From NCBI GenBank assembly GCA_958296085.1, contig OY282433.1, positions 2,960,367 to 3,024,366 of the forward strand: a stretch of DNA of 64,000 nt. The letters are read 5' to 3'. The stretch's first letter is position 1; each line of letters opens with the position of its first letter. The position numbers and the translations under genes were made by a program. Positions 15,526-47,100 of this stretch are shown here, piece by piece. Origin of the DNA: an uncultured Gammaproteobacteria bacterium (GTDB lineage: Bacteria; Pseudomonadota; Gammaproteobacteria; HK1). The notes beneath the pieces are model-generated. The model did not search any database. It had not been told where the DNA came from and saw only the letters and a list, made by a program, of their open reading frames with translations.

Positions 15526-15619
15526 CGGGCAATCTTCTCCGTGGGGGCGAGCGGGTCGGCGACAGTGTAGACGATCGAAGTTGCCGGTCCGGAGCGGCGG
15601 GTGGGGTAGAATCCGCGCG

Positions 15620-16618: not shown

Positions 16619-16689
16619 CTGGTCCCAACCGGGATGGCGCGGCTGGCGGCCATGCAAGGGAAATCTCCAACGGTCTCGAACGGCAAGCA

Positions 16690-19539: not shown

Positions 19540-21626
19540 ACAGTCTGCCCGTCGTACCGTTCAAGGGACTGAACGCGGATTCGCTCGGCGCCTATCTGGC
19601 AGCGCTTGGGTTGTTCTCACTTGTTGCCCGGAAGTGGCCGGGCGTCCGTGCATGTTGGCGGAACGCGGGTTTTTGCCTGGTTGGTGGTCCCATTGCATTG
19701 GATGAGATTGTAGAGTTCGTGAGCAAGATTGGCGAGAGGAACGCTTGGACCCGATACGACAAGCCCTGGGACGAGGACAAGAAGGCGGATGTAGACAAGA
19801 AAACGTCGACGCGGACCGCGCGTTGGCGTGCCTTGGGAGCGGAAGAGCGATCACTACCTGCCTTCGGGGCGCATCTGGCCCTCGACGGCCGGGTGAGGAT
19901 GAATCCCCTGCTCGGCACCGGGGGAAACGCCGGTCAACGAAAGTTCGATAGAGGTTGGCGCAAAGCTGTCACCTGCATTGAGACACCGCCTCGCGGCCAG
20001 AGCAGAGAGTCACTCAAAGCGGATATCGAGGCATTCCTTGATGGAAACTCATGTGCCTACCTCGGCGATTTCAGTGCAGGATCATGGTTCGGGACGGCGA
20101 ACAGGATTTACAACCACGGCACAAGGCGATCTTTTCGCGAAGGAGAAATTACGCCTTGGGCGATGGCACTGGCGTGTGAGGGCTTGCCCTATTTTTCAGG
20201 CGGCGTTTCCCGGCGATTGGGCAGTCGCCGTCAACCCAAGGGCGCCTTCCCGTTCATTACCGCGGCAATGGCGCCGCAGGGCGCGGACGAAGCAGGCAGT
20301 ATAGAAGCCGAGGTCTGGGCTCCGCTCTGGGATCAACCTGTGACAGGGCCTGAGCTCCGATCCTTGTTCCTGCGCGGGAGAGCGGAGCTCGGTGGAAGGG
20401 GGGCGACTTCCTCTGCGGAGTTTGCTGTTGGAGTAACGAACCGTGGTGTCGATGCTGGAATATCGGAATTCCGACGATTTCTGCTTCTGCATACGACCAG
20501 TGTACAGACATTCGAGTCCCGGTTGGCAACCGTCGTTCCGGTTCCGAAGACGAACCTGGACGGTGCAACCTCACGAGCGATTTGGACCATTGTCGAGTTT
20601 CACGATACGTTGCCGGAGGATCGGAAGGTCCGCAATCGATGGAGATTTGCCGGTTTGCGTGGCCCGCTCGAACAAGCGCTTGTTGACTTTGCCGCCGCGG
20701 AACCGGGTGCGGCAGGCACCGAGCAAGCTTGGGCACTGGTTGACGAAATGTTCGAAGCGCTTGTCAAGATTGATCGGAATCGGACGTTTCGCAGCCACAA
20801 TGTACGATTCCAATTGTTGCCAGGCGAGTGGGCAGCGAGGTTGTTTCATGAAGATCCACCCGACCGGGAAACCCGTTTGGCGCTGGCGTTGTCCTCACTT
20901 GCAGGGACGAGGTTCTGCCCGCCGTTCATTGCACACCGCATCGGCGTGCAGAAGGGGATGATCGGATCACGCTGGGATTTTCCCGAGTCTCCCCCGGCTC
21001 GCCGTGTCTGGAGCGATGCCGGGCTGACCGACAATCTATGTGCGACGGCGGAACGACGCACCATGGAAGCATTGCAGAAGGCGGCGGTGCGACCGCCGTT
21101 CGGCTCTACCATCCGAGTGTGCCTCGACGATCTGCATTCCTGGTTGTCCGGCGACGTGGACGAGGAGCGACTGAGCCTATGGCTGGATCGTCTCCGTATG
21201 TTCGACTGGAGCGGCGGAGCAAACCGCGAGGCCGAGGCCGCGAAGGAGTTGCAGCGTGGTTTCCCTCGCACTCGACCGCCCGTTGACGGCATGTTGGCGC
21301 TCTACGCATTGTTCCGCCCGCTTGCGAGTGATTGGCTGTTCCGCCAAGTTCTTCACGAGAGCGGCATTCGAGCCGAGAGAACATCGACATGCGCCTGGCT
21401 CGGCCGCGTCATCGCGATGCTGAGGCGCGGGGACGTGAATGCCGCGGCGGAGGTGGCGCTGGCGGCATACCGCTCTGCCGGCGTGGCACTTGCCGATTTC
21501 AATGTGTTCCCCGATGTGTCTGACCCGGACCGCCTGCTGGCAGCGCTGGTCATCCCGGCTCGTGATGAACAGACTCTTGCCGCTTTCCGGTGCTGGCGAA
21601 CGCCAACCGAACCTAATGAACAATGA
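19536..21626 (+). CDS. csx17: Csx17 / Cas8u(g)-like large subunit
   Basis: 696 aa; its GTG start overlaps the cas3 stop (GTGA). The N-terminus (GLNADSLGAYLAALGLFSLVA..WPGVRACW) resembles Csx17 as I recall it. Its position between cas3 and csb1 also fits. Confidence 0.65.
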   Translation: MNSLPVVPFKGLNADSLGAYLAALGLFSLVARKWPGVRACWRNAGFCLVGGPIALDEIVEFVSKIGERNAWTRYDKPWDEDKKADVDKKTSTRTARWRALGAEERSLPAFGAHLALDGRVRMNPLLGTGGNAGQRKFDRGWRKAVTCIETPPRGQSRESLKADIEAFLDGNSCAYLGDFSAGSWFGTANRIYNHGTRRSFREGEITPWAMALACEGLPYFSGGVSRRLGSRRQPKGAFPFITAAMAPQGADEAGSIEAEVWAPLWDQPVTGPELRSLFLRGRAELGGRGATSSAEFAVGVTNRGVDAGISEFRRFLLLHTTSVQTFESRLATVVPVPKTNLDGATSRAIWTIVEFHDTLPEDRKVRNRWRFAGLRGPLEQALVDFAAAEPGAAGTEQAWALVDEMFEALVKIDRNRTFRSHNVRFQLLPGEWAARLFHEDPPDRETRLALALSSLAGTRFCPPFIAHRIGVQKGMIGSRWDFPESPPARRVWSDAGLTDNLCATAERRTMEALQKAAVRPPFGSTIRVCLDDLHSWLSGDVDEERLSLWLDRLRMFDWSGGANREAEAAKELQRGFPRTRPPVDGMLALYALFRPLASDWLFRQVLHESGIRAERTSTCAWLGRVIAMLRRGDVNAAAEVALAAYRSAGVALADFNVFPDVSDPDRLLAALVIPARDEQTLAAFRCWRTPTEPNEQ

Positions 21627-21638
21627 GGGAGATACCCC

Positions 21639-22739
21639 ATGTCCGATCATCCGCTCGATCCATCCACTCTATTGAATGGCGAGGCTCCGCGTCTGACACT
21701 TCATGCGAATCTCAAGCCGGCCTCGGGTCTGGATCGATTTCAACCTGCGGGTTTCCCCGAGATCGGTCACGTCATTTACGATGCGCCTCGTCCCGACAAC
21801 AGTGTGCAGAAGGTCTGCATCGTGGACAGCGCGGCCAGCATGGCGAATCATCTTGAGACGGTGTGCCTGGCCAGCGAACACTCTCTGGATTTGGTGGATG
21901 AACTGACGGGAATGCCCTATGTCGAATGCCGGACGGACGATGGCTGGCCAGATGTTACTGAAGACACTACAGGGCCGAAGAGGCTCGTCGTCACGACGCT
22001 CTCGGAAGGGCATCGGTTGGCTTCGACCTACTTTCTCAACGGAAGGCTTGTAAAGAACAGTAAACCGAATGAACGCAGGTTTGGCGACCTACTCCGAGCC
22101 GAATTCGGAATTCCTGATCTCGGCAAGAAATCCCATCCACTTCCCGCTCAGTGGTGGACCGTCTTTACGACGATCTTCCGCTACGATCCCAATTCACTCG
22201 TTCACGGGGTGCTCTTCCCGGCCATGGGGATCAAGCTGCCGAGAATGCTGACAGCGCATCTCGAAGCGTTTGGCGTCTCCCGAGTCCGCAGCTCCGGCGT
22301 CAAGTTCGACAAGCTCGGAAAGACATCGTCGGGACAACCGATCTTCTCCGTTGACGAGGAAACTGCCAGCGAAATCGTTGCGACCTTCGTCATCGACTTG
22401 GCACTGCTTCGGTCGTTTGGTCGAGAGGATCGGGGCCTGAACGGTGCGCAGAAGGAATTCCTTCTGGCTCTCGCGCTGTGGAAAATCGAGAGTCTCCTGC
22501 GAGGGCCGTTCCGCTATAGAAGCAATTGCGACCTTGAACTGGACGAACTACGCGTTCATGGTCGCGAAGAGCCTGTCGATCTGCCGGACATCGACATCAA
22601 GTCGGTTGTCGGAAAAGCAGGATTCTGCGATTCGCCTGTGACACAGGTTTACTGGCCCGCGAATGATCTGTTCCGGGCCGGGGCGGATGAACAGGAGGAA
22701 GGCTCCGACTCCGACGACGAACAAGATGCCCAGGGGTGA
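21639..22739 (+). CDS. csb1: Csb1 / Cas7u(g)-like backbone subunit
   Basis: 366 aa. The blocks RFQPAGFPEIG and VDSAASMANHLE match my recollection of the Csb1 family. GAGGGA lies 8 nt upstream of the ATG. Confidence 0.75.
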   Translation: MSDHPLDPSTLLNGEAPRLTLHANLKPASGLDRFQPAGFPEIGHVIYDAPRPDNSVQKVCIVDSAASMANHLETVCLASEHSLDLVDELTGMPYVECRTDDGWPDVTEDTTGPKRLVVTTLSEGHRLASTYFLNGRLVKNSKPNERRFGDLLRAEFGIPDLGKKSHPLPAQWWTVFTTIFRYDPNSLVHGVLFPAMGIKLPRMLTAHLEAFGVSRVRSSGVKFDKLGKTSSGQPIFSVDEETASEIVATFVIDLALLRSFGREDRGLNGAQKEFLLALALWKIESLLRGPFRYRSNCDLELDELRVHGREEPVDLPDIDIKSVVGKAGFCDSPVTQVYWPANDLFRAGADEQEEGSDSDDEQDAQG

Positions 22740-22751
22740 CGAGTCGTTACG

Positions 22752-24308
22752 ATGGAAGTGGTTCTCAGACAGACATTCCCGCATGGGCGGTTCCATGCCA
22801 ATCCATGGCGCATGTTCCCGTTCGAGGATCCCCACGGGGAGTGGCCACCCAGCCCGTGGAGGCTGCTTCGCGCCATTCTGGCGAGATCCCACCAATTGGA
22901 AAGGGAACGTGGCGTCCAGTGCCATCCATGGCGTGACTCGCTGGTCGGAGCGTTTTGTACAAGTACATTCGGTTGGTGTCTACCGTCGCTCAGTTGGCGA
23001 GGTCCGGGGCTACGACAATACCAGCCAGCAACGTTCGAGTGGGATCCGCCTGGCCGAACGAAGAAGGTGAAAGGCCGGTCCGTGAACATCCCGGGCGAGA
23101 GGAAATATCGATCCACCTTGGTACGCGACAATTTCTGGGTAGTCGGCAAATCTGCAACCGACTCGTGCTCCAGCATCGTATGGTGGATCCTGGACGGTGA
23201 GCGGTGGTTCGAGCACGAGCTGGATCGGCTCGATGCCTGTTTGGATCGCATGACCTACTTCGGACGTGCCGAGGCGATCACCGAAATTCAGCGTGTCGAA
23301 AAGCTGCCGAAGGACACCCATGTGAACTGCGTATTGGAGCAAGACCCCTCGTCGGGTTCCGTTCCGGTGCTTGTCCCGACGGAAGACGCCACTCTGGAGC
23401 AGGTGCAGGCGATCACGGACGATCCGTCGGTCGCGAACTCGACCTTACCTCCCGGAGCTCGCTGGCTGCACGCCAAGCGGCCCACCAGAACGCGGGTGAA
23501 GCTGCCGCGTTCAAACCCACGAACGAGAAAATCGACACGCTTTATTCAGTTTGCGATCGGCGCACGAGTCAGCCCCCCGAGAAAATCCATCGTCGTCCTT
23601 ACCCAACGGTTTCGAGGGCGGGTGATTCGCGAATTCCTTGGAGGGAGCTGGCAACAGGCGAATACGGAACGGCGAGAAGCGGCACGTCTCCTCACCGGAA
23701 AAGAAGCCGATGGCACACCGCTGCAAGACCACCAGCATCCACATGCCCGATTCGGGATTCTCTTCGACCACGAGACCGGCAGAGCGGCAAGGCTTCTCGT
23801 ATGGCGCAACCAATCATTTACGGACGGTGAACAACGCGCCATCTTGAACGCAGCCGAGCAGGAACTCCCTTTCTCCTTCGTCAGGGTTGGAACAAGGGAT
23901 CCGTGGACCGTGCGGCTCGTGCCTCTGGATTCGCAAGTACCTTCTCCGGCCGGTTTCGGAGAACGGACCTATCGACGCTGGAAGACTGTTACGCCCTATG
24001 TCCCACCGCGTCATGCGTATGACCGGAAAGGCCGGATAAAGGCAGGAGAATCACCCGAAGAGCAACTCCGCTTCGATCTGGCTCGGCAGGGATACGATAC
24101 GAACGGTCTGACGATCGAACTGGATGATCGAGCTGTCGAGTGGACGCGAGTGCATAGACCACAACGGCATCGAGATGACGCGACGAATACGGAAAGGCGT
24201 GGATATCAGGGATCGCTTACGTTCGATATGCCCGTCCGCGGCCCAATATCACTCGGCCACTCGTCGCACTTTGGCCTTGGGCTATTTGTGGCGGATGCCT
24301 CCGAGTAG
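22752..24308 (+). CDS. csb2: Csb2 / Cas5-Cas6 fusion-like subunit
   Basis: 518 aa. The N-terminal GRFHANPW..EWPPSPWRLLRAILAR block is characteristic of Csb2, and it is the last gene of the operon. Confidence 0.75.
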   Translation: MEVVLRQTFPHGRFHANPWRMFPFEDPHGEWPPSPWRLLRAILARSHQLERERGVQCHPWRDSLVGAFCTSTFGWCLPSLSWRGPGLRQYQPATFEWDPPGRTKKVKGRSVNIPGERKYRSTLVRDNFWVVGKSATDSCSSIVWWILDGERWFEHELDRLDACLDRMTYFGRAEAITEIQRVEKLPKDTHVNCVLEQDPSSGSVPVLVPTEDATLEQVQAITDDPSVANSTLPPGARWLHAKRPTRTRVKLPRSNPRTRKSTRFIQFAIGARVSPPRKSIVVLTQRFRGRVIREFLGGSWQQANTERREAARLLTGKEADGTPLQDHQHPHARFGILFDHETGRAARLLVWRNQSFTDGEQRAILNAAEQELPFSFVRVGTRDPWTVRLVPLDSQVPSPAGFGERTYRRWKTVTPYVPPRHAYDRKGRIKAGESPEEQLRFDLARQGYDTNGLTIELDDRAVEWTRVHRPQRHRDDATNTERRGYQGSLTFDMPVRGPISLGHSSHFGLGLFVADASE

Positions 24309-25669: not shown

Positions 25670-26836
25670 GGAAGGTCTGATCTAACGGCCATTTGAAGGC
25701 CGGTGGCCGCCCAGAGCGGTTTTCGGCGGAATTTCACGCTCGGGAGCGGGGAATCGACCGATTCGGGGGCACCTGGCGCCCGTTTCGACGCCTTCCAAGC
25801 ACACGGGCGCCGCAGTCACGCCGCCAAGCTCCGCTCGGCGATCAGCAGATTGGCAAAGCCCAGCAGCAGCGCGATCCGCTGCCCGTTCTTGTGCAGGCCC
25901 CGGTAGCGCACCTTGCCGTACCCGAACACCCGCTTCACGTAGAAGAACGGGTGCTCCGCCTTGGCCCGGACTGACGCCTTGTTCTTCTCGCGCCGCGCCT
26001 CCTCGCCGTCCGCCGCCAACCGTCGTCGAAGACCCGGCCGCATCGCCACCCGCCACTCCACGTCCCGGCCACGGTTCTCCGGGCGCTTCTCCACGCCCTG
26101 ATAGCCCGCATCGCCCCACACCACCTTCTCCTCCCCATGCACCAGCCGGTGCGCGTGCGCCACGTCCGACTCGTTCGCCGGCGTCGCCGTGAAGCTGTGG
26201 GCCACCCCCGTCTGCGCGTCCGACCCAACGTGCATCTTCATCCCGAAGTACCACTGCTTCCCCTTCCTCGTCTGATGCATCTCCGGGTCCCGCTTCCCAG
26301 CCCGGTTCTTCGTCGAGGACGGCGCCTCCACGATGCTCGCATCCACCACCGTGCCCTCTCGAAGCGTCAGACCCCGCGACGCCAGACAATCGTTGATCGA
26401 CGCCATCAGCCGCTCCCCGAGCCCGTACTTCTCCAGCAGGTGTCGGAACTTCAGGATCGTCGTCTCGTCCGGCAGTGCGTCCAGTGTCAACCCCGCGAAA
26501 CGACGCACCGGCTCCACTTCGTAGAGCATGTCCTCCATCCCCGGATCGCTCAGGTTGTAGAACAACTGAACGCAATGCACCCGCAGCATCGCCGACAGCG
26601 GGTACGGACGACGACCGCGGCCCGACCCCTTCGGATAGTGCGGCTCGATCACGTCCTCCAACTCCTTCCACGGAATCAGACCGTCCATCCGCTCCAGGAA
26701 CTTCTCCCGCCGCGTCTTCTTCTTCTTCGCCCCGTACTCCAGCTCCGCGAACGTCGCCTGAATCCCCATCGCCCCCTCGCTCCCAATCCCCATTTCCTCT
26801 ATTGTCCCACCATCACGGGACTAAATCAGAGGTTCC
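25670..26836 (-). mobile_element. intact IS5-family insertion sequence (1167 bp) with 4-bp CTAG target duplication
   Basis: The ends are GGAAGGTCTGATCTAAC (25670-) and the reverse complement GGAACCTCTGATTTAGT (-26836), matching in about 12 of 17 positions. CTAG flanks both sides (25666-25669 and 26837-26840). The element has a single transposase ORF. Confidence 0.85.
25816..26769 (-). CDS. IS5-family DDE transposase
   Basis: The match to the E. coli IS5 transposase, as I remember it, is close. Shared blocks are FAELEY..KKKKTRREKFL, RRPYPLSAMLRVHCVQLFYNLSD, VDASIVEAPSSTKN, DPEMHQTRKGKQWYFGMKMHVG and ADAGYQG. I trimmed the start to ATG 26769. Confidence 0.9.
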   Translation of the reverse strand: MGIQATFAELEYGAKKKKTRREKFLERMDGLIPWKELEDVIEPHYPKGSGRGRRPYPLSAMLRVHCVQLFYNLSDPGMEDMLYEVEPVRRFAGLTLDALPDETTILKFRHLLEKYGLGERLMASINDCLASRGLTLREGTVVDASIVEAPSSTKNRAGKRDPEMHQTRKGKQWYFGMKMHVGSDAQTGVAHSFTATPANESDVAHAHRLVHGEEKVVWGDAGYQGVEKRPENRGRDVEWRVAMRPGLRRRLAADGEEARREKNKASVRAKAEHPFFYVKRVFGYGKVRYRGLHKNGQRIALLLGFANLLIAERSLAA

Positions 26837-33221: not shown

Positions 33222-33291
33222 GGTGAAGTCATCTGCCCTTGCCTCCCAAAGACTCAACGAGTGGAGTCTCCGGAAAACCCGGGGCGGTTCA
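33222..33291 (-). mobile_element. 70-nt remnant of an IS3-family left end (terminus TGAACCGC.. at 33291, reading leftward)
   Basis: Its reverse complement matches 38670-38739 in 65 of 70 positions. The match includes the terminal TGA, the 5' UTR and the first 4 codons (ATGACTTCACC) of orfA. Similarity stops abruptly after that point. Confidence 0.7.
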
Positions 33292-33376: not shown

Positions 33377-33658
33377 ATGGACACCCCACAGGCAATGCGC
33401 GAACGAGTCGTCGGCAAGGCGGCGGAGGACAGAGGGTTCCGGTCTCAGTTGATCGAGGACCCCAAGGGAACCATCCAGACGGAGCTCGGCATCAGCCTGC
33501 CGGACTCGCTGTCCGTCGAGGTCCACGAGGAGAGCACCGAGACCGCACACCTCGTGCTGCCACCCGACAGCAAGCTGAGCGAGGGCGACCTGCAGGCGGT
33601 AGCCGGAGGCTTCTTCGGCAGCAGCATGGGGAGCGCCAAGTCGCTGTTGAACTGGTAG
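33377..33658 (+). CDS. NHLP (nitrile-hydratase-like leader peptide) family RiPP precursor; predicted core FFGSSMGSAKSLLNW
   Basis: The leader MDTPQAMRERVVGKAAEDRGFRSQLIEDPKGTIQTELGISLPDSLSVEVHEESTETAHLVLPP..LSEGDLQAVAGG follows the NHLP consensus block by block. It ends in a double-glycine site. Confidence 0.85.
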   Translation: MDTPQAMRERVVGKAAEDRGFRSQLIEDPKGTIQTELGISLPDSLSVEVHEESTETAHLVLPPDSKLSEGDLQAVAGGFFGSSMGSAKSLLNW

Positions 33659-33831: not shown

Positions 33832-34065
33832 TCATGCGGCGGCTCTGCGGTCCTTGATGACCTCGATGCCGTCGTTGAACGGGACTCCCTCGATGACCTT
33901 GGCGAGGTGTCGGAAGCCACGCAGCCGGCGCCAGGATTTCTCGGCGCACCGGCCCATCTTGTAGACCATCGAGAGCATGGTCTTTCGGGTGACGCAGCCC
34001 TTGGCTCGCGAGCTTTGGTGGCGGATCGTGGCGAAGGCCGATTCGATGACGTTGGCGGTATGACC
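33832..34065 (-). pseudogene. C-terminal fragment of an IS256-family (mutator-type) transposase
   Basis: My reverse translation reads TANVIESAFATIRHQSSRAKGCVTRKTMLSMVYKMGRCAEKSWRRLRGFRHLAKVIEGVPFNDGIEV..*. Only about 75 of the expected ~400 aa are present. Confidence 0.7.
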
Positions 34066-34564
34066 GCGCCGACTACCCCTGCCCCCAGTCGGTCGAGACG
34101 CACATCATCGCCGGCATGGGCGGGCGGATCTACGGGCCGTACACCGGTATCACCTCGGCCCCGATCCCGACTCGCTCGTTCCGCGGATCATGATCCGGGT
34201 GGTTCCCGGAAGCGTCCTCGAAGGAGACCCTCGGTCCTGCGTCGTCTCACTCGTCGCCTGGCGGCAGAAGACCATGGACGAGGCCCGCTGGGAGGGCCTC
34301 AAGTCCGGTCATGAGCGCGAGATCCGGGGATCAAACGTCTGATCGAATCCGCCCCCCGCCCGTAGCCGTCCGGCCGCGCCGGGTTTCGGGCCGAAGGGCC
34401 GCGCTGCCGGCCCCGGTTGGCGGGGGGTCGTGAACCTGTCTCGAAATTGCCATCCGAGCTATGGTCGAAAGTGGTGTAAGGCGCGCAGCCGCTCGGGCTC
34501 CCCCGAGCCGTTCCGCTCCTCGGTGGCGCCGGCAATGGCGGCGCGAGCCGGATACGCGCCATCG

Positions 34565-34598
34565 GATATTTTGCCAAAAAATATATTGCCAAAATATC
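34565..34598 (+). promoter_or_regulatory. AT-rich palindrome/direct-repeat element upstream of the NTPase pair
   Basis: GATATTTTG-N16-CAAAATATC contains TTGCCAAAA twice. It sits about 50 nt upstream of ATG 34650 and is strikingly AT-rich for this genome. Confidence 0.4.
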
Positions 34599-34649
34599 TC
34601 TTGTCGTTTACCGTGACGTTGTTCCGGAGCTCCCGCGGAGGGAACCCGA

Positions 34650-35852
34650 ATGCGCAACGTCATCGGACAGGCCGTCGTCGGCGACGATCTCTACGGGCGA
34701 GACTACGAGCTGGCCCGTCTCTGGGAGACGCTGGAGCAGGGCGAGCACATCCTGATGCTCGCTCCCCGGCGGGTGGGCAAGACCAGCCTGATGCTGGAGC
34801 TCCGCCGCGCACCTCGCGAGAACTGGAACGTCATCTACGTCGATGTCGAGCGGGGCGACGGTCCGGCTGATTTCGTGGCGGCGGTTCTCGCCGCGCTGGC
34901 GGCCGATCGCCGGTATCGGAGCCGTTTCGAGACGATTCCATTCTCGGGCGCGGTCAAGGACGTTCTTGGACGGTTTCAGTCCGTCAGCGTCGATGTCGAC
35001 GTGTTGCGCGTCGAGCTCAAAGGCGCAATCGGCCGTGAGTGGGATCATGCGGCGGACCAGCTTCAGGCGCGTCTGACGAACCTGCCGGCCGCCGGCGCCA
35101 ACCTTCTGATCATCGTCGATGAGTTGCCGTTCCTCGTCTCGCGAATGCTGCGGACCGCTGAACGGAAGCACGACGCCGAGATGCTGCTGTCCCGGCTCCG
35201 GCATTGGCGTCAGGCACCGGAGTTGCGCGGAAAGGTCCGTACGCTGGTCGGGGGATCGATCGGACTCGAAGGAGTCCTGCGGCGTGCGAGCCTTTCGGGC
35301 TTGATCAACGACCTCGCACCGTTCCATCTGGACTCGTGGGACAGGCCCACCGCCGTCGAATTCATGAAGGCACTTGGAAACGGCTGCGATTTCCGTCTCG
35401 ACGATGCATCCATCGCCCGGATCCTGGATCTGCTGCGAGACCCTGTTCCGTACCACGTGCAACTTTTCTTCTCGACTCTGCGCGATGCCTGTAGAAACAA
35501 ACCTTCCCGCGTTTCCCCCGAGATGATCGAACGGTGTTTTGAAGAGCGGCTTGCCGGAGCCAGCGGAACCGCCCACCTCGATCATTACGCGGAGCGCCTC
35601 GAGATTGCATTCGGCGAGCGGGAACACGAAATGGCACGCGACATCCTGGGCCGCGCCTGCCGGCGAGAGGACGGCGCAGGTTTCGCGGAGCTCGAAGACC
35701 TGCGTCAGCGGAGCGGGCAGATGTACTTGTCGGTGCTGCGCGACCTGGAGGCCGACGGTTACGTGAGGCATGAAGGCAGCCGGCTGAAGTTCCGTTCCAA
35801 TCTCTTGCGGAAGTGGTGGCGCAAATACCACGACAGGGGGGTTGCGCCATGA
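34650..35852 (+). CDS. P-loop NTPase (ATPase_2/Arch_ATPase-like) with C-terminal winged-helix-like region
   Basis: Walker A is LMLAPRRVGKTSL and Walker B is LLIIVDELPFL. It is 400 aa, and its stop overlaps the next start (ATGA at 35849-35852). Confidence 0.7.
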   Translation: MRNVIGQAVVGDDLYGRDYELARLWETLEQGEHILMLAPRRVGKTSLMLELRRAPRENWNVIYVDVERGDGPADFVAAVLAALAADRRYRSRFETIPFSGAVKDVLGRFQSVSVDVDVLRVELKGAIGREWDHAADQLQARLTNLPAAGANLLIIVDELPFLVSRMLRTAERKHDAEMLLSRLRHWRQAPELRGKVRTLVGGSIGLEGVLRRASLSGLINDLAPFHLDSWDRPTAVEFMKALGNGCDFRLDDASIARILDLLRDPVPYHVQLFFSTLRDACRNKPSRVSPEMIERCFEERLAGASGTAHLDHYAERLEIAFGEREHEMARDILGRACRREDGAGFAELEDLRQRSGQMYLSVLRDLEADGYVRHEGSRLKFRSNLLRKWWRKYHDRGVAP

Positions 35853-38707
35853 TCCGCCGCCGGCTCTACAACCCGGCGCAACTGACCCCCGACGAGTTGA
35901 AGGCGTCGTTCGTCGCGCGCGAGGACACCCTTGTGGAGATGCTCCGCCTGATCGGCGAGCAACCCCCCGGCCGGCCGTGCCAGCACGTGATGCTCATCGG
36001 CCCGCGCGGCATGGGAAAGACCACCCTTGGGCTGCGCTTCCTGCACGCGATCGGGGACACTCCCGACCTTGCCGCGCGCTGGCAGCCCGTCGCGTTCTAC
36101 GAGGAAAGCTACGAGATCGGCGACTTGGCGGACTTCTGGCTCGCCGCCCTGCGCCATTTGACTCGTGCCACCAACGACCCGCGATGGGCGGACAGAGCCG
36201 ACGCGCTCGCCAGGGACGAAGGAGATAGGGAACGGCTCGCCGCGTACGCCCTCTCGGCACTCACGGATTGTTGCCGGGAAAACGGGAAACGGCTGATCCT
36301 GTTCGTCGAGAACCTGGACACCATCTTCAGGCAGTTACGGGACGAGCGCGAAATTCATGCCCTGCGCGCCACCCTGATCGAGCGTCCGGAGATCCTGCTG
36401 CTCGGGTCCGCCAACGCCGTCTTCCAAGCTATCCGCGGCCACGGCGAGCCGTTCTACGAATTCTTCCGGCTGTTCATTCTCGAAGGTCTCGGACGGGAAG
36501 ACGCGCATCGGATACTCGCGGCCCTCGCGGGCTGTGAAGGCAGGCCGGAAATCCCGGAAGCCATGAAGCGGGAGCGCGGCCGGCTTGAGACCATACGCCG
36601 GCTGACGGGCGGCAATCCGAGATTGCTGGTGCTTGCCTGTCGAATGCTGATCGAATCCCCCCTCGGTTCCGCCTTCGAGGATCTGGAGCGGCTCATCGAC
36701 GAACAGACGCCTTACTTCAAAGCCAGGATCGAAGAATTGCCGATCCAGGCCCGCAAGGTGTTCCACTGTCTCGCGGAAGGGTGGAAGCCGATGCTGGCGA
36801 AGGAGGTGGCCGGCACCGCGACGCTGAGCTCCTCGCACGCCAGCGCCCAGCTCCGGCAACTCGTGGAGAAGGGTTATGCAAGAGAAATTCACCTGCCAAG
36901 GGCGAAGCGGGCGCGGTACGAGGTCAGCGACCGCTTCTACAACATCTACTACCTGCTGCGCTTCTCGCGCGCGGAGCGCGACCGTCTGGAACGGCTCGTC
37001 ACCTTCCTTCACGATCTTTTCGGCCCCGCCGGGATGCGGACGATGTATCCGGCGACACTGGCGACTTTACGTGGAGACGGTATCGGTGCGGGAGAGATCG
37101 CGGAATGGCTCGGCGTTCTGGCTTCCCACGTAGCTCGCGATCAAGGCTTCAAGGGGCGTGAGGATTGGCTGCGCGAAGCACTTGACATCGCTATGAGTCG
37201 TATCGGTCCGGGCAGCTCGATTGTCGACAGGATTCAGAGGGAGTTCGCAACCCAAGATCATTTGGACAGATTGTTGCAAGACGCCATCGATCTTTTTGGA
37301 GCCGGGCGTTTATCGGAGGCGACAGCGAAATTCCGAAACGTCATCGAGGAGCAGCCGGATAACGTCCTTGCTTGGACACTGCTCGGCTTTACGTTGATGC
37401 AAGAGCATCCCGAGGAGTCCATTGCAGCTTTCGAACATGTCCCGAAACATGTCGTCCCGGACGATCCGGCCGAATTACGTGCTCTGGCTGCGGTGGCGCT
37501 GACGGTCAACGGCCTGATTTTGGCCCAACTGGCACGTCACGGAGATGCAATCGCCACGCTTGAACAAATTCCTGAATACACTGACCCGGAAGACAAAGAT
37601 CACCTACGTGTATTGAGTGCCGTGATGCAACTTCTTACCGGTTCTTTTCTCGCCATGTCCGATCGACATGAAGAGGCCATCGCCGCTTGGCAGCGTGCCT
37701 CGGAAGATGTACGCCCGGACGATCCGGAAGAACTGCGACGAATGGCTGCGGAAGCACTCAAGAGAAAAGGTGATGCTCTTGCCGAGCTGGGCCGGCATGA
37801 AGAGGCCATCGCCGCATGGCAGTGGATCTCTGACCATGTACGCCCAGACGATCCGGAAGAGCCGCGCCGAATGGCTGCCGAAGCGCTCAGGAATAAAGGT
37901 GATGCTCTCGCTAAGTTGGGTCAGCATGAAGAAGCCATAGCTGCCTGGGAGCAGACTACCGAATACATATTCGTGGAGGATCCGACAGAGCTGCGTCACG
38001 TAGCAGCGATGGCCCTAGGCGCCAAGGGCCTCGCTCTTTCCAGGATGGAGCATTACGACGACTCGACCACCGCTTGGCATTGGGCTTCGCAGTATGTTCG
38101 CCCGGGCGATCCGGAGGAAACCCGGCAAGTAGTTGTCATGATGCTGGCAGTTGGAAGTCGTTTATTTAATCTACACGGGAAATATGGAGAGGCGGAAGCC
38201 GCTAGCAGAAAGGCGACGTGCATCGAACCGATGCATCATGAATCATGGCGCGTCCTGGCGGAAGCAATCCTTTGTCAGGACGACGATGCACGTCTGCCGG
38301 AGGCTGAAGACTGTGCTCGTCGCGCAGTGGAACTGGCGCCGGAAAATCCGGGCGCTCTTCACACACTTTCCGATGTTTTAGCTTGCCGTGGAAATTGGAC
38401 GGAAGCATTGGACCGACTTGCACACGCCCTGCACATTGGCGGCGATGTTTTCCAGGAAAAGGAATGGCCCGGTCTGACGGAATCATTGATCCCGGCGGTT
38501 GCCGCCGGTCATGGATCGCGTGTCAAGAGGATGATGGAGGAGGCCGGGCTGACCGAACCGATGGAACCGCTCTGGCATGCGATAAGGGCGGAGTTGGGCG
38601 AAGAACTCGAACCCCTGCCCGTGGAGATCATGGAAACCGTGACGGACCTCATGCAGGAATTTTCAGATATGAACCGCTCCGGGAAACCCGGAGACTCCAC
38701 TCGTTGA
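35849..38707 (+). CDS. STAND-like P-loop NTPase with winged helix and C-terminal TPR-like repeats
   Basis: Walker A is LIGPRGMGKTTLG and Walker B-like is LILFVENLD. A wHTH-like KVFHCLAEGWKPMLAKEV..LRQLVEKGY follows, then repeated HEEAIAAW.. units. I trimmed the start to ATG 35849. The last 12 codons plus the stop lie inside the IS3 end. Confidence 0.75.
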   Translation: MIRRRLYNPAQLTPDELKASFVAREDTLVEMLRLIGEQPPGRPCQHVMLIGPRGMGKTTLGLRFLHAIGDTPDLAARWQPVAFYEESYEIGDLADFWLAALRHLTRATNDPRWADRADALARDEGDRERLAAYALSALTDCCRENGKRLILFVENLDTIFRQLRDEREIHALRATLIERPEILLLGSANAVFQAIRGHGEPFYEFFRLFILEGLGREDAHRILAALAGCEGRPEIPEAMKRERGRLETIRRLTGGNPRLLVLACRMLIESPLGSAFEDLERLIDEQTPYFKARIEELPIQARKVFHCLAEGWKPMLAKEVAGTATLSSSHASAQLRQLVEKGYAREIHLPRAKRARYEVSDRFYNIYYLLRFSRAERDRLERLVTFLHDLFGPAGMRTMYPATLATLRGDGIGAGEIAEWLGVLASHVARDQGFKGREDWLREALDIAMSRIGPGSSIVDRIQREFATQDHLDRLLQDAIDLFGAGRLSEATAKFRNVIEEQPDNVLAWTLLGFTLMQEHPEESIAAFEHVPKHVVPDDPAELRALAAVALTVNGLILAQLARHGDAIATLEQIPEYTDPEDKDHLRVLSAVMQLLTGSFLAMSDRHEEAIAAWQRASEDVRPDDPEELRRMAAEALKRKGDALAELGRHEEAIAAWQWISDHVRPDDPEEPRRMAAEALRNKGDALAKLGQHEEAIAAWEQTTEYIFVEDPTELRHVAAMALGAKGLALSRMEHYDDSTTAWHWASQYVRPGDPEETRQVVVMMLAVGSRLFNLHGKYGEAEAASRKATCIEPMHHESWRVLAEAILCQDDDARLPEAEDCARRAVELAPENPGALHTLSDVLACRGNWTEALDRLAHALHIGGDVFQEKEWPGLTESLIPAVAAGHGSRVKRMMEEAGLTEPMEPLWHAIRAELGEELEPLPVEIMETVTDLMQEFSDMNRSGKPGDSTR
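37667..38053 (+). repeat. three tandem 129-bp (43-aa) units inside the TPR region
   Basis: catgaaga(g/a)gcc recurs at 37667, 37796 and 37925. The first two units are highly similar at the nucleotide level (HEEAIAAWQ..VRPDDPEE.RRMAAEAL..KGDALA.LG). Confidence 0.8.
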
Positions 38708-38839
38708 GTCTTTGGGAGGCAAGGGCAGATGACTTCACCGACAAGATACTCCCCGGAAGTCCGGGAACGGGCGGTGCGCCTGGTGTTGGAGCACCAAGGT
38801 GAGCATGATTCGCAGTGGTCGCCGTCACCGTGGCGGTAG
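38670..38839 (+). mobile_element. IS3-family left end with truncated orfA (MTSPTRYSPEVRERAVRLVLEHQGEHDSQW..)
   Basis: The terminus TGAACCGCTCC.. is at 38670 and the orfA ATG is at 38729. RYSPEVRERAVRLVLEHQGE..SQW is the conserved N-terminus of IS3 OrfA HTH proteins. Homology is lost after about 30 codons, and the stop is at 38837-38839. Confidence 0.75.
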
Positions 38840-38858
38840 GGATGTCGTGGTGACAGGG

Positions 38859-39263
38859 ATGAAACGTCATTCGCATGTCAAGGGCAAGCTGCGCTGGGAG
38901 GTGCCCTTGCGCCGCGAGTGCGAAGTGCGCACCCGGTTCGCCGAGGAGGCGGTTTTGCACCGGGGCGAGCCCTACGTCTGGATCGGCTTCGGGTTCGAGA
39001 ACGACCGGGAGGAGGAGCGACAGATCTCGATCGCCCTCTTCCTCCATAGCCGGCGGGCGAGGAGCTACGCCATGCGCCTGCTGAAGCAGATGGGGGTGCG
39101 GTCGCTCCCGAGCACCGGCGACCTCGCCGAGGACGCGGTGCAGCTCGTGCAGGCGATCGAGGGGACCCTGCTCCCGGCCGCCCTCGGCATGAGGCGGAGC
39201 ATGGAGCAGGATGGCAAGTGGCGGGTCGTCCAGATCCGCATGCCCGGACGCGGGGGCGCGTGA
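38859..39263 (+). CDS. hypothetical protein
   Basis: The ORF 38799..39263 was trimmed to ATG 38859 to avoid the IS3 remnant. It has host-like G+C, and I recognise no motif. Confidence 0.4.
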   Translation: MKRHSHVKGKLRWEVPLRRECEVRTRFAEEAVLHRGEPYVWIGFGFENDREEERQISIALFLHSRRARSYAMRLLKQMGVRSLPSTGDLAEDAVQLVQAIEGTLLPAALGMRRSMEQDGKWRVVQIRMPGRGGA

Positions 39264-39290
39264 ACGGCCTCGGTGGAAGTGATTATCAGG

Positions 39291-39308
39291 TGATAATCTT
39301 ATAACCTA
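39291..39308. promoter_or_regulatory. perfect palindrome GATTATC-aggt-GATAATC at the start of an unusually AT-rich ~80-nt patch
   Basis: Read directly from the sequence. It is followed by further TTATC repeats (39309-39360) and lies about 190 nt upstream of the DUF4143-type ATPase gene. Confidence 0.35.
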
Positions 39309-39499
39309 CCCCTTTCGTATCTATTTATCTTCGTTATCATTTCCGGCTATTCACCCGCTTTCCGCGGGAACGGATGGTCCAACCCTCCTCCTGACCTGCC
39401 GGCGGACGGCAGCGCGGAGTGTCGGGCCGTGCTTGGGCCACTCGGGGGTCACCGTATGCTATCGTACGAATTCTTCGATGAGATCGTAGAATTTGCAGC

Positions 39500-40681
39500 A
39501 TGTGGATTGACCGACAGGTAGAACCACTTCTCCTGCGGAGGGCCGCGACCCGCCCGGTCGTCGTCCTGACCGGTGCGCGCCAGACCGGGAAGACGAGCCT
39601 GGTACGCCGGCTGTTCCCGGATCACGCCTACGTCACGCTGGACCTGCCGAGCGAGGCGGAGCAGGCGGAACGCGACCCCGTTTCGTTTCTCGCCCGCCAT
39701 CCGCCGCCGCTCATCGTGGACGAAGTGCAGTATGCCCCCGGCCTCTTTCGCCATCTCAAGGTCGCGGTGGATGGGGAGCGCGAGCGCCCGGGCGCCTTCC
39801 TGCTGACCGGCTCGCAGCCGCTCGGCCTCATGCGGTCGGTCTCCGATTCACTCGCGGGGCGTGCCGAGGTCATCGAGCTGGAGCCACTCTCCTTCGCCGA
39901 GGCCAGGGCGGCGCATCCGCGTCTCGGCGTCGAGGAGTTCCTGGTTCGCGGCGGCCTCCCGGAGCTCTACCGGGATCGGGAGATCGACGCGGAGGGCTTT
40001 CTCCGCTCCTACGTGGCGACGTACCTGGAACGCGACCTCCGGCAGCTCCTCCGAGTCTCGAGTCTGCGGGACTACGAGCGCTTCCTGCGCGCTGCGGCGT
40101 TGCGCTCCACGCATCTGCTGAACAGGGCCGATCTCGCCCGCGACGTGGGCATCAGCGGCTCTACCTCCGCCGCTTGGCTCTCTGCGCTGGAGGCGACGCA
40201 TCAGCTCATGGTGCTCGAACCGTGGTTCGGCAACCGGACGAAGGCGCTGGTGAAACGACCGAAGCTGTACCTGCGCGATGCCGGGCTGGCGGCCTTCCTG
40301 TGCGGGGTCCATTCCGTGGAGGCCCTGTGCTCCTCGCCGCTGGCGGGCGCGCTGTGGGAAACGCTCGTCTGTGCCGAGATCCGCCGTTCGCAGTCGAACC
40401 GGCGCGGCGGGTGGGATCTCCACTTCTGGCGCGACCAGAGCCGCGAGGCCGACTTCCTCCTGCACCGGGCGGGAGCGTTCCACCTGGCCGACGCGAAGTG
40501 GACCGAGCACCCGGGCGGGCGCGACGCGAAGGCATTGTTCAGGATCGCCCAAGCTCTACCGCCCGGCAGCGTCCGAACGATGTCGATCTTCTGCCGGGCG
40601 ATCAACCCCTATCCGCTGGGCTCGGGGGGCGTGAATGCGGTTCCCCTCGATGCGCCGGAGGCGCTCGCGGAATGGGCCTGA
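39500..40681 (+). CDS. AAA ATPase with DUF4143-like C-terminal domain
   Basis: Walker A is LTGARQTGKTSL and Walker B is LIVDEVQYAP. Its length (393 aa) and layout are typical of the AAA_14/DUF4143 family. Confidence 0.75.
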   Translation: MWIDRQVEPLLLRRAATRPVVVLTGARQTGKTSLVRRLFPDHAYVTLDLPSEAEQAERDPVSFLARHPPPLIVDEVQYAPGLFRHLKVAVDGERERPGAFLLTGSQPLGLMRSVSDSLAGRAEVIELEPLSFAEARAAHPRLGVEEFLVRGGLPELYRDREIDAEGFLRSYVATYLERDLRQLLRVSSLRDYERFLRAAALRSTHLLNRADLARDVGISGSTSAAWLSALEATHQLMVLEPWFGNRTKALVKRPKLYLRDAGLAAFLCGVHSVEALCSSPLAGALWETLVCAEIRRSQSNRRGGWDLHFWRDQSREADFLLHRAGAFHLADAKWTEHPGGRDAKALFRIAQALPPGSVRTMSIFCRAINPYPLGSGGVNAVPLDAPEALAEWA

Positions 40682-44146: not shown

Positions 44147-47100
44147 CGGCGTCGGCGAAATGCTTGTACAGGCTGACGAGCTCTTCCGGCTTGAACCCGA
44201 CGATGATGAGCTCGTTTCCAGGGTAGAGCGTTACGTCGGGGTCCTGCGTCAACCGGCCGAGCCGGCGGTTGTAGACGATCGTCTCCCGCGATTTTCGGTA
44301 GATCATGAGCCCCAGCGGGGAGCTCGATCGGTCCTCGAGCACTTCGTCCGCGTCGTGCGGTACCGCGACCCGGTAGGTGTCCGTCCGCTCGTTGAGGGTG
44401 AGCCGCACCCCGCGCGCGAAGTTCTCGGTGACACCCTTCTGGATGATGCCCCAGAGTCCCTGATGGTCGTTCCCGGTGACGGCATGGACATAGAAGACGT
44501 CGTGCTCGCCGACCTCGACGGTCCCTTCGAGCAGCTCGCGGATGGTGATGGTCTCCTGCTGAGCCGGGGTCTCCTCCGTGCCGCGGAATACCGTCGTCTT
44601 CGCGGGGGCCGCCTCGCCCTTCCCAGGGGTTGCCGGTTCGGCCGCGGGCTCGGTTTCGGCGGCGGCAGCGCTCCCGGGCTTCTCTTCGCTCGCTGCGGGC
44701 GCTTCGTCCCTGAGCGGTCTGGCGCCGGGGGCGAGCTCGCTGATGTCGTCGTCCGCCTTCTTCATCGGCTCCGCGGCCGGCGCCGCGGCCCGGTCCTCCC
44801 CGGGGGTCTGCGGTTCGGCCGCGGGCTCGGTTTCGGCGTCGGCAGCGTCCCCGGGCTTCCCTTCGCTCGTTGCGGGCGTTTCGTCTTCCCCGGCGGGCGC
44901 CGTTTCGTCGGCGGGCGCGGGTTCGGCAGGGGCCTCCTCCGCGGTCTTCTTCATCAGCTCCGCAGTCGCTGCCGCCGTCCGGTCCTCCCCGGGGGTCTGC
45001 GATTCGGCCGCGGGCTCGGTTTCGGCGGCGGCAGCGTCCCCGGGCTTCCCTTCGCTCGTTGCGGGCGCTTCGCCTTCTCCGGTGGGCGCCGTTTCGCCGG
45101 CGGGCGCGGGTTCGGCAGGGGCCTCCTCCATGGGCTTCTTCATCGGCTCCGTGGCCGGGGCCGCGGCGCGGTCCTCCCCGGGGGTTGCCGGTTCGGCCGC
45201 GGGTTCGGTTTCGGCGGCGGCAGCGTCCCCGGGCTTCCCTTCGCTCGTCGCGGGCGCTTCGTCTTCCCCGGCGGGCGCCGTTTCGCCGGCGGGCGCGGGT
45301 TCGGCAGGGGCCTCCTCCGCGGTCTTCTTCATCGGCTCCGTGGCCGGCGCCGAGGTCCGGTCCTCCCCGGGGGTCTGCGTCTCGGTCCCGGGCTCGGTTT
45401 CGGCGGCGGCAGCGCTCCCGGGCTTCTCTTCGCTCGTCGCGGGCGCTTCGTCTTCCCCGGTGAGCGCCGTTTCACCGGCGGGCGCGGGTTCGGCAGGGGC
45501 CTCGTCGGCGGTCTTCTTCATCGGCTCCGCGGCCGGCGTCGCCGTCCGGTTCTCCCCGGGGGTCTGCGATTCGGTCCCGGGCTCGGTTTCGGCGGCGGCA
45601 GCGTCCCCGGGCTTCTTCATCGGCTCGTCCTGCGCGGCCGTTGGCCCCGTCTTCTCGGCCGGTGAGTCGGCATCTGCCCGCGGGATCCGCCCTTCTTCTT
45701 CCGCCGACGGGACTTTCAGTGGGTCCTCGGGTTTCGCCACCCCCGCGAGCGTTTGCGTGGATCCGGGCGGAGAGTCTCCCCCCTGCGGTCCGAACTGGAT
45801 CTTCTGGTCCGCGCCGATGAAGTGGTCCGCACGTTCGCCTGGAATCGGCTCGGGGGCGGGTTTGGCAAGGTCCGCGACGTATTCCGCAGCCTCCTTGTCG
45901 AGGGCGGAGTCCGGTGACTTCGCTTCGGACCGGGGGAGCGCCGCCGCCGTATCTCCTCTGTCCGCGGCCACGGCCGCGGCAGCCCCTTCGTCGTCGCTCG
46001 CCGGAGGTTCGGCGGCGGCGGACGGCGTCCCGTCGCCAAGGGCAGGCTCCGCCCCGGCGGCGGGTTGCGTCTCTGGAGCGGCCGTGCCCTCGTCCCCGGC
46101 GGCCGGCTGCGCTGCGTCGGGCGCGGGAGGCTCCGCCCCGGCGGCGGGTTGCGTCTCTGGAGCGGCCGTGCCCTCGTCCCCGGTGGCCGGGGGTGCTGCG
46201 TCGGGCGCGGGTGGCTTCGCCCCGACGGCGGGTTGCGTCTCCGGAGCGGCCGTACCTTCGTCCCCGGCGGCCGGGGGTGCTGCGTCGGGCGCGGGAGGCT
46301 CCGCCCCGGCGGCGGGTTGCGTCTCTGGAGCGGCCGTACCTTCGTCCCCGGCGGCCGGGGGTGCTGCGTCGGGCGCGGGAGGCTCCGCCCCGGCGGCGGG
46401 CTGCGTCTCCGGAGCGGCCGTGCCCTCGCCCCCGGCGGCCGGGGGTGCTGCGTCGGGCGCGGTCGGCTCCGCCTCGGCGGCGGGTTGCGTCTCGGGAGCG
46501 GCCGTATCCTCGTCCCCGGCGGCCGGGGGTGATGCGTCGGGCGCGGGAGGCTCTGCTCCGGCGGCGGGTTGCGTCTCGGGAGCGGCCGTGCCCTCGCCCC
46601 CGGCGGCCGGCTGCGCTGCGTCGGGCGCGGGAGGCTCCGCCCCGGCGGCGGGTTGCGTCTCGGGAGCGGCCGTATCCTCGCCCCCGGCGGCCGGCTGCGC
46701 TGCGTCGGGCGCGGGAGGCTCCGCCCCGGCGGCGGGCTGCGTCTCGGGAGCGGCCGTACCCTCGTCCCCGGCGGCCGGCGGCGCTGCGTCGGGCGCGGGC
46801 GGCTCCGCTCCGGCGGCGGGTTGCGTCTCGGGAGCGGCCGTGTCCTCGCCCCCGGCGGCCGGGGAAGGCGCTTCTTCGTTCCGGTCCGCCTCGTCCGAAG
46901 GCGCTTCGGCCGGGGCGGCTTTCTCCTCGGCGGCGGTCTCGGCCATTTCCTCGCCGGAGGAGCCGGGCTCGGCAGGCTTCGCGGCGGATTCTTCGCCGCT
47001 CGGCTCCTCGGCCGGGCCGGGGACGGCCGGCTCGGCGGGCGCATCCGGTTCCTCCACGAACTCCCCACCGGTCGGATCGCGGGTCATCTCGTACCAGACG

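Follow-up and report, generated by a model that had tools for sequence, protein, structure and literature searches.

STAND/NLR receptors are central to the immunity of bacteria, plants and animals, and to our knowledge nearly all of the characterised bacterial members bear an obvious executioner domain. Here we describe two adjacent genes, A and B, which lie on the plus strand at positions 34650-38707 of a 64,000-nt stretch (the window) of contig OY282433.1 from an uncultured gammaproteobacterium, and which we consider a good candidate for an uncharacterised, widespread system. Among the described systems, the Avs/AVAST proteins (Avs1-21) provide the closest comparison. Like protein B, they have a central STAND NTPase and a winged helix, followed by a large, mostly TPR-like and fast-diversifying C-terminal sensor (PMC13581612); horizontal mobility, and the location of some loci in defence neighbourhoods, are further points of likeness. 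However, an Avs protein is one polypeptide that bears its effector (a nuclease, protease, SIR2, TIR or other domain) at the N-terminus, whereas the NTPase of B is located at the extreme N-terminus, no effector is present and a second gene encoding a bare NTPase is obligatory. A second comparison is with the bacterial NACHT proteins of the bNACHT01 clade, because bNACHT01 defends against phage without a recognisable effector (10.1101/2022.07.19.500537). B is likewise effector-less, has a spaced acidic residue after Walker B, and has two distant relatives that just pass the threshold of the Pfam NACHT family (PF05729, cutoff 26.7), namely a Moraxella relative at 30.2 bits and P0309 at 28.4 bits, although B of the window itself has no match (P numbers denote proteins of the B family, and L numbers homologous loci compared with the window). 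In contrast to the single bNACHT01 gene, we always find a pair, and the Walker B signature of NACHT proteins, D[GAS]hDE (10.1101/2022.07.19.500537), is resembled but not matched by B and its aligned relatives, which read [D/E]-N-h-D-x.

Regulators and replication proteins offer further comparisons. MalT and the AfsR/SARP-type regulators also consist of an NTPase with a TPR-like sensor, and binding to repeated promoter sites after oligomerisation is predicted for the A-B pair as it is for them; they differ in their LuxR- or OmpR/SARP-type DNA-binding domain, which is absent here, and the present module is split over two genes and has no co-transferred targets. Protein A shares its predicted three-part fold, over its full length and at a similar size, with archaeal Orc1/Cdc6 and with the PF01637 ATPases 2qen and 2fna, but its sequence score lies under the Pfam threshold, it has no link to replication origins, and it is always coupled to a STAND-TPR partner in a mobile cassette. 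The paired sensor and helper NLRs of plants are an analogy, in that adjacent, co-expressed nucleotide-binding oligomerisation domain (NOD) proteins include one with a variable recognition domain; homology is limited to the STAND fold. Plant helper NLRs carry coiled-coil (CC) or TIR executioner domains, and A has none. Our literature searches returned no description of this A-B pair. It would work most like the STAND receptors of the Avs and bNACHT type, yet lacks their effector feature and the NACHT Walker B signature. What appears to be new is a STAND/NLR-like switch that is divided between a sensor NOD and a bare helper NOD, is effector-less and is putatively self-regulated.

Gene A (34650-35852, plus strand) begins with ATG and encodes 400 aa, a minimal NTPase module with a predicted AAA+ base, helical lid and C-terminal winged helix. 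Gene B (35849-38707, plus strand) encodes 952 aa from its ATG, comprising a STAND NTPase, a winged helix, a TPR sensor and a conserved tail. The sequence gcgccATGAtccgc places the ATG of B at 35849-35851 and the TGA of A at 35850-35852, with the tetranucleotide ATGA (35849-35852) common to both genes, which are translationally coupled. Because homologues begin at the same residues, MRNxxGQ in A and MIRRRLYNPAQL in B, we regard the annotated starts of both genes as the true ones; a GTG located 12 codons 5′ of the B start is not used by the homologues. The Walker A and Walker B motifs are APRRVGKTS (aa 38-46) and LLIIVDELP (aa 152-160) in A, and GPRGMGKTT (from aa 51) and LILFVENLD (from aa 149) in B, where they are invariant across the family. 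An initial annotation, made from the sequence alone, had described a two-component NTPase module with an ATGA overlap, Walker motifs and winged-helix segments in both proteins, a STAND-like B with a long TPR array as its repeat sensor, and no effector domain in either protein. This description stands throughout: the overlap is evident from the open reading frame (ORF) coordinates and the sequence at 35849-35852; the Walker motifs are read in both proteins; winged helices appear in the AlphaFold models of A (aa ~345-394) and B (aa ~299-360); Pfam places the TPR array at aa ~470-860 of B; and the GxP motif, winged helix and TPRs identify B as STAND-like. Pfam, NCBIfam and PADLOC detected no nuclease, protease, TIR, SIR2 or similar domain in A or B, and NCBIfam gave nothing specific for either protein.

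AlphaFold models of both proteins were compared with solved structures using Foldseek, which related A to ORC/Cdc6-like ATPases and B mainly to TPR superhelices. The model of A (predicted local distance difference test, pLDDT, 80; predicted template modelling score, pTM, 0.76) consists of an AAA+ base, a lid and a C-terminal winged helix. Its top match was the Pyrococcus Walker-type ATPase 2qen (E 3e-9, template modelling (TM) scores 0.57/0.63), over ~400 aligned columns; archaeal ORC2, ORC1 and Cdc6 (1w5t, 2v1u, 2qby) and SSO1545 (2fna) aligned over ~400 columns each, and MuB, CED-4, RFC, RuvB and TnsC gave weaker matches. The model and the motifs together contain the base, lid, C-terminal winged helix, Walker A and Walker B DE of ORC/Cdc6-like AAA+ proteins. 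Therefore, based on the predicted architecture and the Foldseek matches, we assign A as a bare ORC/Cdc6-like ATPase module with no additional domain. In sequence searches, the Pfam matches of A (AAA_22, AAA_16 and ATPase_2/PF01637) are all weak and below threshold, PF01637 scoring 21.1 bits against a gathering cutoff of 33.2, the precomputed matches of the homologues are weak or faint, and a search of solved-structure sequences gave nothing significant for A or for the N-terminal half of B. Residues retained even at 25% identity include the unusual P-loop LMLAPRRVGK, DE(L/I)P, GS(I/V)GL(D/E), P-[YF]-[HY], DGY and a C-terminal helix with the pattern F-x-S-x-LL-x-x-[WY]-W (conserved in A as FRSNLLRxWW). 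A HLDHY motif, considered as a catalytic site, was dropped because it is not conserved in distant relatives. We also rejected the idea that A and B are recent paralogues, because only the P-loop aligns in a profile-profile comparison of the two.

B is a STAND NTPase with a repeat sensor. It contains a P-loop NTPase with Walker A and B motifs, a helical domain with the GxP motif followed by a winged helix, and a C-terminal repeat array. The GxP motif reads GGNPR and is kept in close and distant relatives, and the Walker B of B and of all aligned relatives follows hhhh[D/E]NxD (VENLDT, DNLDL, DNIDL). Pfam recognises AAA_16 in B above its cutoff (6.8e-10) and several TPR families at aa ~470-860 (TPR_2 at 6e-15, TPR_11 at 2e-13, and others). 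In the AlphaFold model (pLDDT 77.5), the NTPase is followed by helices of low prediction quality (aa 190-290) and then by a classic winged helix (aa 299-360); long helices and TPRs form helical repeats over aa 377-900, and the protein closes with a two-helix tail. A Foldseek search with full-length B yielded mostly TPR superhelices, among them the STAND-TPR protein 6mfv and SAMD9, and left the NTPase unclassified because TPR proteins swamped the query. The winged helix weakly resembles the DNA-binding domains of MarR, CasR and Csa3, and relatives have MarR-type matches at the same position. The tail (38486-38669, plus strand; aa ~880-940) is among the most conserved parts of B, with invariant columns and the motif EPMEPLWHAxRAELGEELEPLPxEI; relatives of 25-35% identity have the related motif WPL..A..AY..GE..L.DVNPEVR. 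The tail may serve in docking or in autoinhibition.

An exhaustive HMMER search with the first 470 residues of B recovered 4,347 representative clusters (at 50% identity) at E<=0.001 and 1,903 at E<=1e-30. We surveyed the 150 best of the 4,347 representatives, together with the eight longest relatives, for effectors. In every full-length protein among those 150 the NTPase match begins at residue 1-33 (fragmentary entries excepted), and the eight longest relatives (1,077-1,436 aa) contain just more TPRs and no effector. Judged by these proteins, the whole B family is effector-less.

Might an effector have been lost from this particular copy? The initial annotation had considered that B was truncated at its C-terminus and had lost an effector there, or that the effector was encoded elsewhere. 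The first possibility is refuted, because B misses only 2 residues and homologues of 870-983 aa, spanning 99% of the query, stop at the same motif. The native end reads ...QEFSDMRR* (943 aa in L007), and that of the window ...QEFSDM+NRSGKPGDSTR*, in which the end of an insertion sequence (IS) begins after ...SDM; the last 13 codons of B (38670-38707) are read from an IS3 end, so that 2 native residues are replaced by 11 IS-derived ones. The second possibility fared no better as far as nearby genes are concerned, since no third gene is conserved beside the pair.

The IS bracketing reported for the pair is real, in the form of remnants. A 70-nt inverted repeat (33222-33291 and 38670-38739, 93% identity) represents two outward-facing left ends of an IS3-family element, each of which begins with TGAACCGC and runs into a ribosome-binding site (RBS), an ATG and the first OrfA codons (MTSPTRYSPEVRERAVRLVLEHQGE). 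The OrfA N-terminus resembles HTH_Tnp_1 weakly (E 5.6e-4; 20.5 bits, under the 24.1-bit cutoff). The right remnant, of 181-189 nt, is inserted at the last codons of B (38670-38858, plus strand) and comprises the left repeat (38670-38739) and the OrfA N-terminus (38729-38827). The inverted second copy (33222-33291, minus strand) lies in a segment that is not present in L085, and a C-terminal fragment of an IS256-family transposase gene (~33835-34065, minus strand) was recognised by its translation and by ~70% DNA identity to annotated plasmid-borne IS256-family transposases. In L085, a sister genome that is 98.5% identical, the cassette occupies the same chromosomal site without the right IS3 fragment and without the segment holding the left one. 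Because of this, we regard the IS pieces as late additions and not as the vehicle. A composite transposon was rejected on the same grounds, and because the IS3-family pieces are just left-end fragments of 70-190 nt. Directly downstream, a 134-aa ORF (38859-39263, plus strand; 14019-14423 in L085), without a Pfam match, starts at an ATG that also serves B as its last Met codon. Were it not for the IS fragment in the window, or a 1-nt deletion in L085, B would run in frame into this ORF; the two reading frames have thus been separated by two independent mutations in the two genomes. The ORF was rejected as a member of the cassette, because L007, in which homology to the window stops at 38672, does not contain its DNA.

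A comparison with L007, whose flanks are unrelated, delimits the mobile cassette sharply. The two loci match at 95% over 4,146 nt, from 34527 to 38672 (plus strand), which encompasses the promoter/operator region and genes A and B, and the limits with L052 are similar (34569-38678). The GC content of the cassette in the window is 0.61 and that of its flanks 0.71-0.72, in agreement with the earlier view that this is foreign DNA. Across loci, the cassette has a GC content of ~0.60 (0.52-0.70) and the host flanks range over 0.49-0.71, the cassette being lower than GC-rich hosts and higher than GC-poor hosts, a pattern that recent transfers out of a shared pool would produce. Hundreds of full-length homologues exist for A and for B at 55-99% identity, often on the same contigs. 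In 82 of the 84 loci that we retrieved, B follows A directly and usually overlaps it, and the other two loci end at a contig edge. The pairing is kept even where A is just 25-33% identical, and over the whole range of 25-97% identity. This bears out the proposal that the two genes form one module and answers what follows them in other genomes: nothing conserved does. When all ORFs within 6 kb of the pair were clustered across loci, no conserved third gene emerged; the recurring families are housekeeping paralogues (SDR, luciferase-like, GFO/IDH, CoA-transferase) and, in 7 loci, an AAA_15/21 ATPase. Likewise, 3′ of the B stop we found only lineage-specific short segments and no conserved attC-like site, terminator or repeat. 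One such segment, common to L017, L018, L020, L021 and L025, contains the hairpin-like repeat CTGGATCCCGGATCAAGTCCGGGATGAC after the B stop, which may be an element resembling repetitive extragenic palindromes (REP) or a terminator.

On the basis of these sequence comparisons, the cassette has been acquired horizontally and is mobile across many phyla, in which it is found at 50-97% identity. One Binatia genome contains two copies (L009 and L010; CBDCPK010000005.1, at 875 kb and 3,064 kb) that have only ~4.2 kb in common. Close homologues, found in metagenome-assembled genomes (MAGs), come from Gamma- and Alphaproteobacteria, Binatia, Thermodesulfobacteriota/Dadabacteria, Latescibacterota, Spirochaetia, Acidobacteriota and Entotheonella. 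Judging the habitat from names and taxa, these MAGs appear to belong almost exclusively to lineages typical of sponge symbionts, and the isolate names RHO, COS and SB06 are consistent with the sets of sponge MAGs published by Robbins et al. (PMC8163846). In sponge symbionts, CRISPR and restriction-modification genes are reported to be enriched, and lateral gene transfer to occur among them (PMC8163846). More distant members of the family were found in Myxococcota, Planctomycetota, Verrucomicrobiota, Pelobacter and Methylococcaceae, and plasmids carry them in Moraxella osloensis (pNP7-2; WP_100271209.1 and WP_100271210.1), Clostridium tagluense (pCM022-183; WP_226102292.1 and WP_226102294.1), C. 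estertheticum, Segatella copri and Methylomonas. The partner genes in these distant members are true homologues of B by profile comparison (probability 100%, 31-32% identity over ~390 residues).

The cassette also appears to carry its own control region. The AT-rich palindromic element that had been noted upstream of A is present at 34565-34598 and belongs to an array (34565-34614, plus strand) over the inferred promoter, with two TTTTG-N-CAAAA palindromes (34569-34579 and 34584-34594) 15 nt apart and a degenerate third at ~34599-34611. The inferred -35 element is TTGCCA (34586-34591), overlapped by the palindromes, and the -10-like element is TACCGT (34609-34614), at a spacing of 17 nt; an RBS, GGAGGG (34637-34642), lies 7 nt upstream of the A start. 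The -10 of the window is weaker than that of most loci (TATCGT or TATGCT), and a strict consensus promoter scan called no plus-strand promoter in the window copy. The palindrome pair is found upstream of A in 53 of 55 close loci, nearly always at the 15-nt spacing, and in 1% of random windows. It does not recur elsewhere in the 64 kb (2 matches in total against 0.09 expected). Distant subfamilies have other tandem palindromes in this place: Myxococcota and Planctomycetota loci carry GTTGT-ACAAC units that recur every 16 nt, others carry TGTATAAATACA-type units, and Moraxella has AACTATA-N4-TATAGTT three times. We consider the AT-rich palindrome to be a putative operator/promoter of the cassette itself, which would imply autoregulation. 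Because no regulator gene travels with the pair and the operator changes with the proteins, regulation by the winged helix of A or of B is the simplest reading.

A further feature of the pair, besides its obligatory coupling and its putative operator, is the diversification of the sensor in B. We profiled identity to the window along B in the same 35 homologues. It is 76-93% over aa 1-400, drops to 36-39% in a hypervariable part of the TPR sensor (37169-37648, plus strand; aa 441-600), is 47-68% in the middle repeats, which vary in occupancy, where most homologues align, and returns to 70-81% over aa 801-920. Pairwise ratios of nonsynonymous to synonymous substitution rates (dN/dS) are 0.07-0.23 in the NTPase and winged helix and 0.2-0.9 in the TPR parts, including the hypervariable part (0.88 for the window and L007), 2-5 times higher in the TPRs; for the NTPase of the window they are 0.14-0.19 against L007 and L085. 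Both NTPase modules are under strong purifying selection. The two Binatia copies are informative in this respect: their NTPase parts are near-identical (dS 0.05) and their TPR parts have a dS of 0.44, a difference that points to the exchange of sensor segments between near-identical NTPase modules. The TPR array also contains tandem repeat units of 129 nt (43 aa; 37406-37921, plus strand), the copy number of which differs between homologues. Homologues of B are between 560 and 983 aa long. In the short forms (~560 aa), most of the middle TPRs are missing, although NTPase, winged helix and conserved tail are all there; they occur in L011, L036, L044, L051, L052, L054, L057, L077 and L081 and as proteins P0195, P0198, P0207 and P0211, and could be constitutive or decoy variants.

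How might such a pair work? Our leading, though tentative, reading is that it is an autonomous, horizontally mobile NLR-like sensor/helper switch of the immune type. One of the two winged helices would bind the operators and set the expression level of the operon, and the operator array would hold the dose low until the system is triggered. The variable TPR surface of B would bind a ligand that is foreign or linked to stress, most probably a protein encoded by a phage or by another mobile element; with ligand and ATP, B would oligomerise and engage A. A would be the output, as a DNA-binding AAA+ protein of the ORC/MuB type that acts on DNA, by blocking replication or transcription or by reprogramming expression, or that burns ATP; no nuclease, protease or NADase domain would be involved in its action. 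A more far-reaching version, which we consider possible but on the whole unlikely, is that the pair represents a new class of NLR-like immunity, in which a STAND sensor with variable TPRs (B) and an obligatory ORC/Cdc6-like DNA-binding partner (A) confer protection by DNA binding, blockade of replication or transcription, or consumption of ATP, police their own dose via subfamily-specific operators, and spread as a promoter-to-stop cassette across more than 10 phyla, in particular in sponge microbiomes. If the system is immune, it would represent a non-enzymatic or DNA-level output of NLR-type sensing and a bacterial counterpart to receptor pairs of the sensor/helper kind; a regulatory role would make it a widespread, mobile and self-contained signalling switch. 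Either way, it is a clean example of pan-phylum gene sharing within what appears to be a host-associated microbiome, and because plasmid-borne relatives exist in cultured Moraxella, Clostridium and Segatella strains, it is directly testable.

The genomic neighbourhoods lend a measure of support to an immune role. In L001, the pair has a type I-F CRISPR-Cas operon on one side and SLFN/AlbA_2 and WYL genes on the other; in L004, an AAA_15/21+DUF4276 pair precedes it and a DUF4143 ATPase follows; the Moraxella plasmid copy lies between genes of a Qat system, a kinase and a DNA methylase; and the Segatella plasmid copy follows DUF262 and WYL genes. A GajA-, AriA- or HEC-01A-like ATPase is encoded no more than 2 genes downstream in ~4-5 of 71 loci, and single loci have Cse1 or N6 methylase neighbours. 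In the window, a DUF4143 ATPase lies 0.8 kb downstream of the pair and type I cas genes lie ~10 kb upstream.

Several observations weigh against the immune sensor/helper switch. First, the defence-island signal is weak, because several loci are purely metabolic (L086, L087, L088 and L089, over 10 kb on either side) and housekeeping paralogues are the commonest neighbours overall. Second, PADLOC-DB v2 contains no system model that recognises A, B or their relatives from cultured strains (the best match, mad8 at 5.8e-5, covers the P-loop region only), and no copy of the cassette was found in viral contigs or in a phage collection. Third, binding of the operators by the winged helix of A or B is a prediction, and the output proposed for A is a conjecture for a pair in which no enzymatic effector is present. 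Fourth, the fast evolution of the TPRs, where dN/dS averages below 1, may reflect relaxed constraint.

We considered that the pair might instead be a ligand-controlled transcription factor of the MalT/AfsR type with no part in immunity. Here, the TPRs of B would sense a small molecule or a host protein, and an oligomer of A and B on arrays of repeated sites would activate or repress promoters, its own included. The upstream region fits this idea, as repeat arrays with a period of 15-16 nt over the -35 element are what is seen at promoters of oligomerising STAND regulators; both proteins have winged helices, that of B resembling the MarR and Csa3 types, and the lack of an effector domain and the many loci among metabolic genes also agree with it. 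However, the cassette crosses phyla without target genes or a conserved neighbour, the operator in the window is found solely at its own promoter, metabolite sensors are not usually hypervariable with swapped modules, and the dedicated LuxR- or OmpR-type DNA-binding domain of known STAND regulators is missing. We therefore rate this explanation as unlikely, but it is the most serious of the alternatives to the immune switch.

Less probable still is that the pair belongs to an unrecognised mobile element as a selfish or maintenance module, serving for example addiction, exclusion or targeting and kept because it is hard to lose rather than because it helps the host. The sharp borders, the many phyla, a GC content independent of the host, the duplication in one genome and the IS elements that are often near are all features of such a module, and the fold class of A includes the transposition ATPases MuB and TnsC. 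Nevertheless, no transposase, integrase or relaxase travels with the cassette, no terminal repeats or conserved downstream site were found, and both NTPase modules are strongly constrained.

A separate question, independent of these alternatives, is whether the copy in the window is an inactive, decaying remnant. Its last 2 residues of B have been replaced and 11 added next to the conserved tail, its -10 element departs from the sequences seen elsewhere and escaped the strict promoter scan, and L085 has suffered an independent 1-nt deletion at the same spot. Against this, the frames are intact over 400 + 940 native codons, the low dN/dS of the NTPase relative to L007 and L085 indicates constraint, and the last invariant column, F938, comes before the altered residues. 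We regard the copy as essentially intact and decay as improbable. Finally, we think it most improbable that B is a symbiosis factor, a TPR-containing 'eukaryote-like repeat' protein acting on processes of the sponge: although close homologues come almost entirely from MAGs of sponge-symbiont-type lineages, and sponge symbionts are enriched in TPR proteins and have laterally transferred genes that include sponge-enriched ones (PMC8163846), Pfam detected no secretion or export domain, reading the N-termini by eye (no predictor) revealed no signal peptide, the TPRs are fused to a cytoplasmic NTPase switch, and members of the family at large are known from Myxococcota, Planctomycetota, Pelobacter, Moraxella (human skin), Clostridium (meat), Segatella (gut) and soil bacteria.

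The remaining features of the window concern its other genes and repeats. The DUF4143 ATPase downstream of the pair (39500-40681, plus strand) is a 393-aa AAA_14 + DUF4143 protein that matches the PADLOC candidate PDC-S01 (5e-91) and is preceded by an AT-rich stretch at ~39280-39340. It was rejected as a regular partner of the pair because tblastn at 1e-5 detected it in no other locus; by the same search, the DUF4143 gene downstream of the pair in L004/L005 is not detectably similar to it. Upstream, four co-oriented genes at 16690-24308 (plus strand; GC 0.57-0.64) encode a Cas3-like helicase (949 aa), a 696-aa protein without a Pfam match, a Cas_GSU0053 protein (366 aa) and a 518-aa protein without a match. 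This low-GC block has the appearance of a CRISPR-Cas effector set of a type I-U/I-G-like kind; positions 1-17000 of the window yielded no CRISPR array.

The 1.1-kb segment that is not present in L085 (32665-33787) contains, adjoining the left IS3 end, a 93-aa ORF (33377-33658, plus strand) that matches the NHLP leader-peptide family of precursors of ribosomally synthesised and post-translationally modified peptides (TIGR03793, 3.1e-20, above the cutoff). An IS5-family element (25670-26836), with its gene on the minus strand at 25816-26793 (DDE_Tnp_1 at 2.9e-24, and DUF772), is inserted relative to L085, and the adjoining window sequence 25666-25939 matches L085 8544-8817 in inverted orientation. 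Further downstream, within a region that L085 annotates as a 1,048-aa minus-strand protein without a Pfam match, positions 44618-46987 contain long, very GC-rich tandem repeats of 189 nt (5.3 copies), 84 nt (9.8 copies) and 252 nt (3.7 copies), with a GC content of up to 0.81 and an AT skew of about -0.6.

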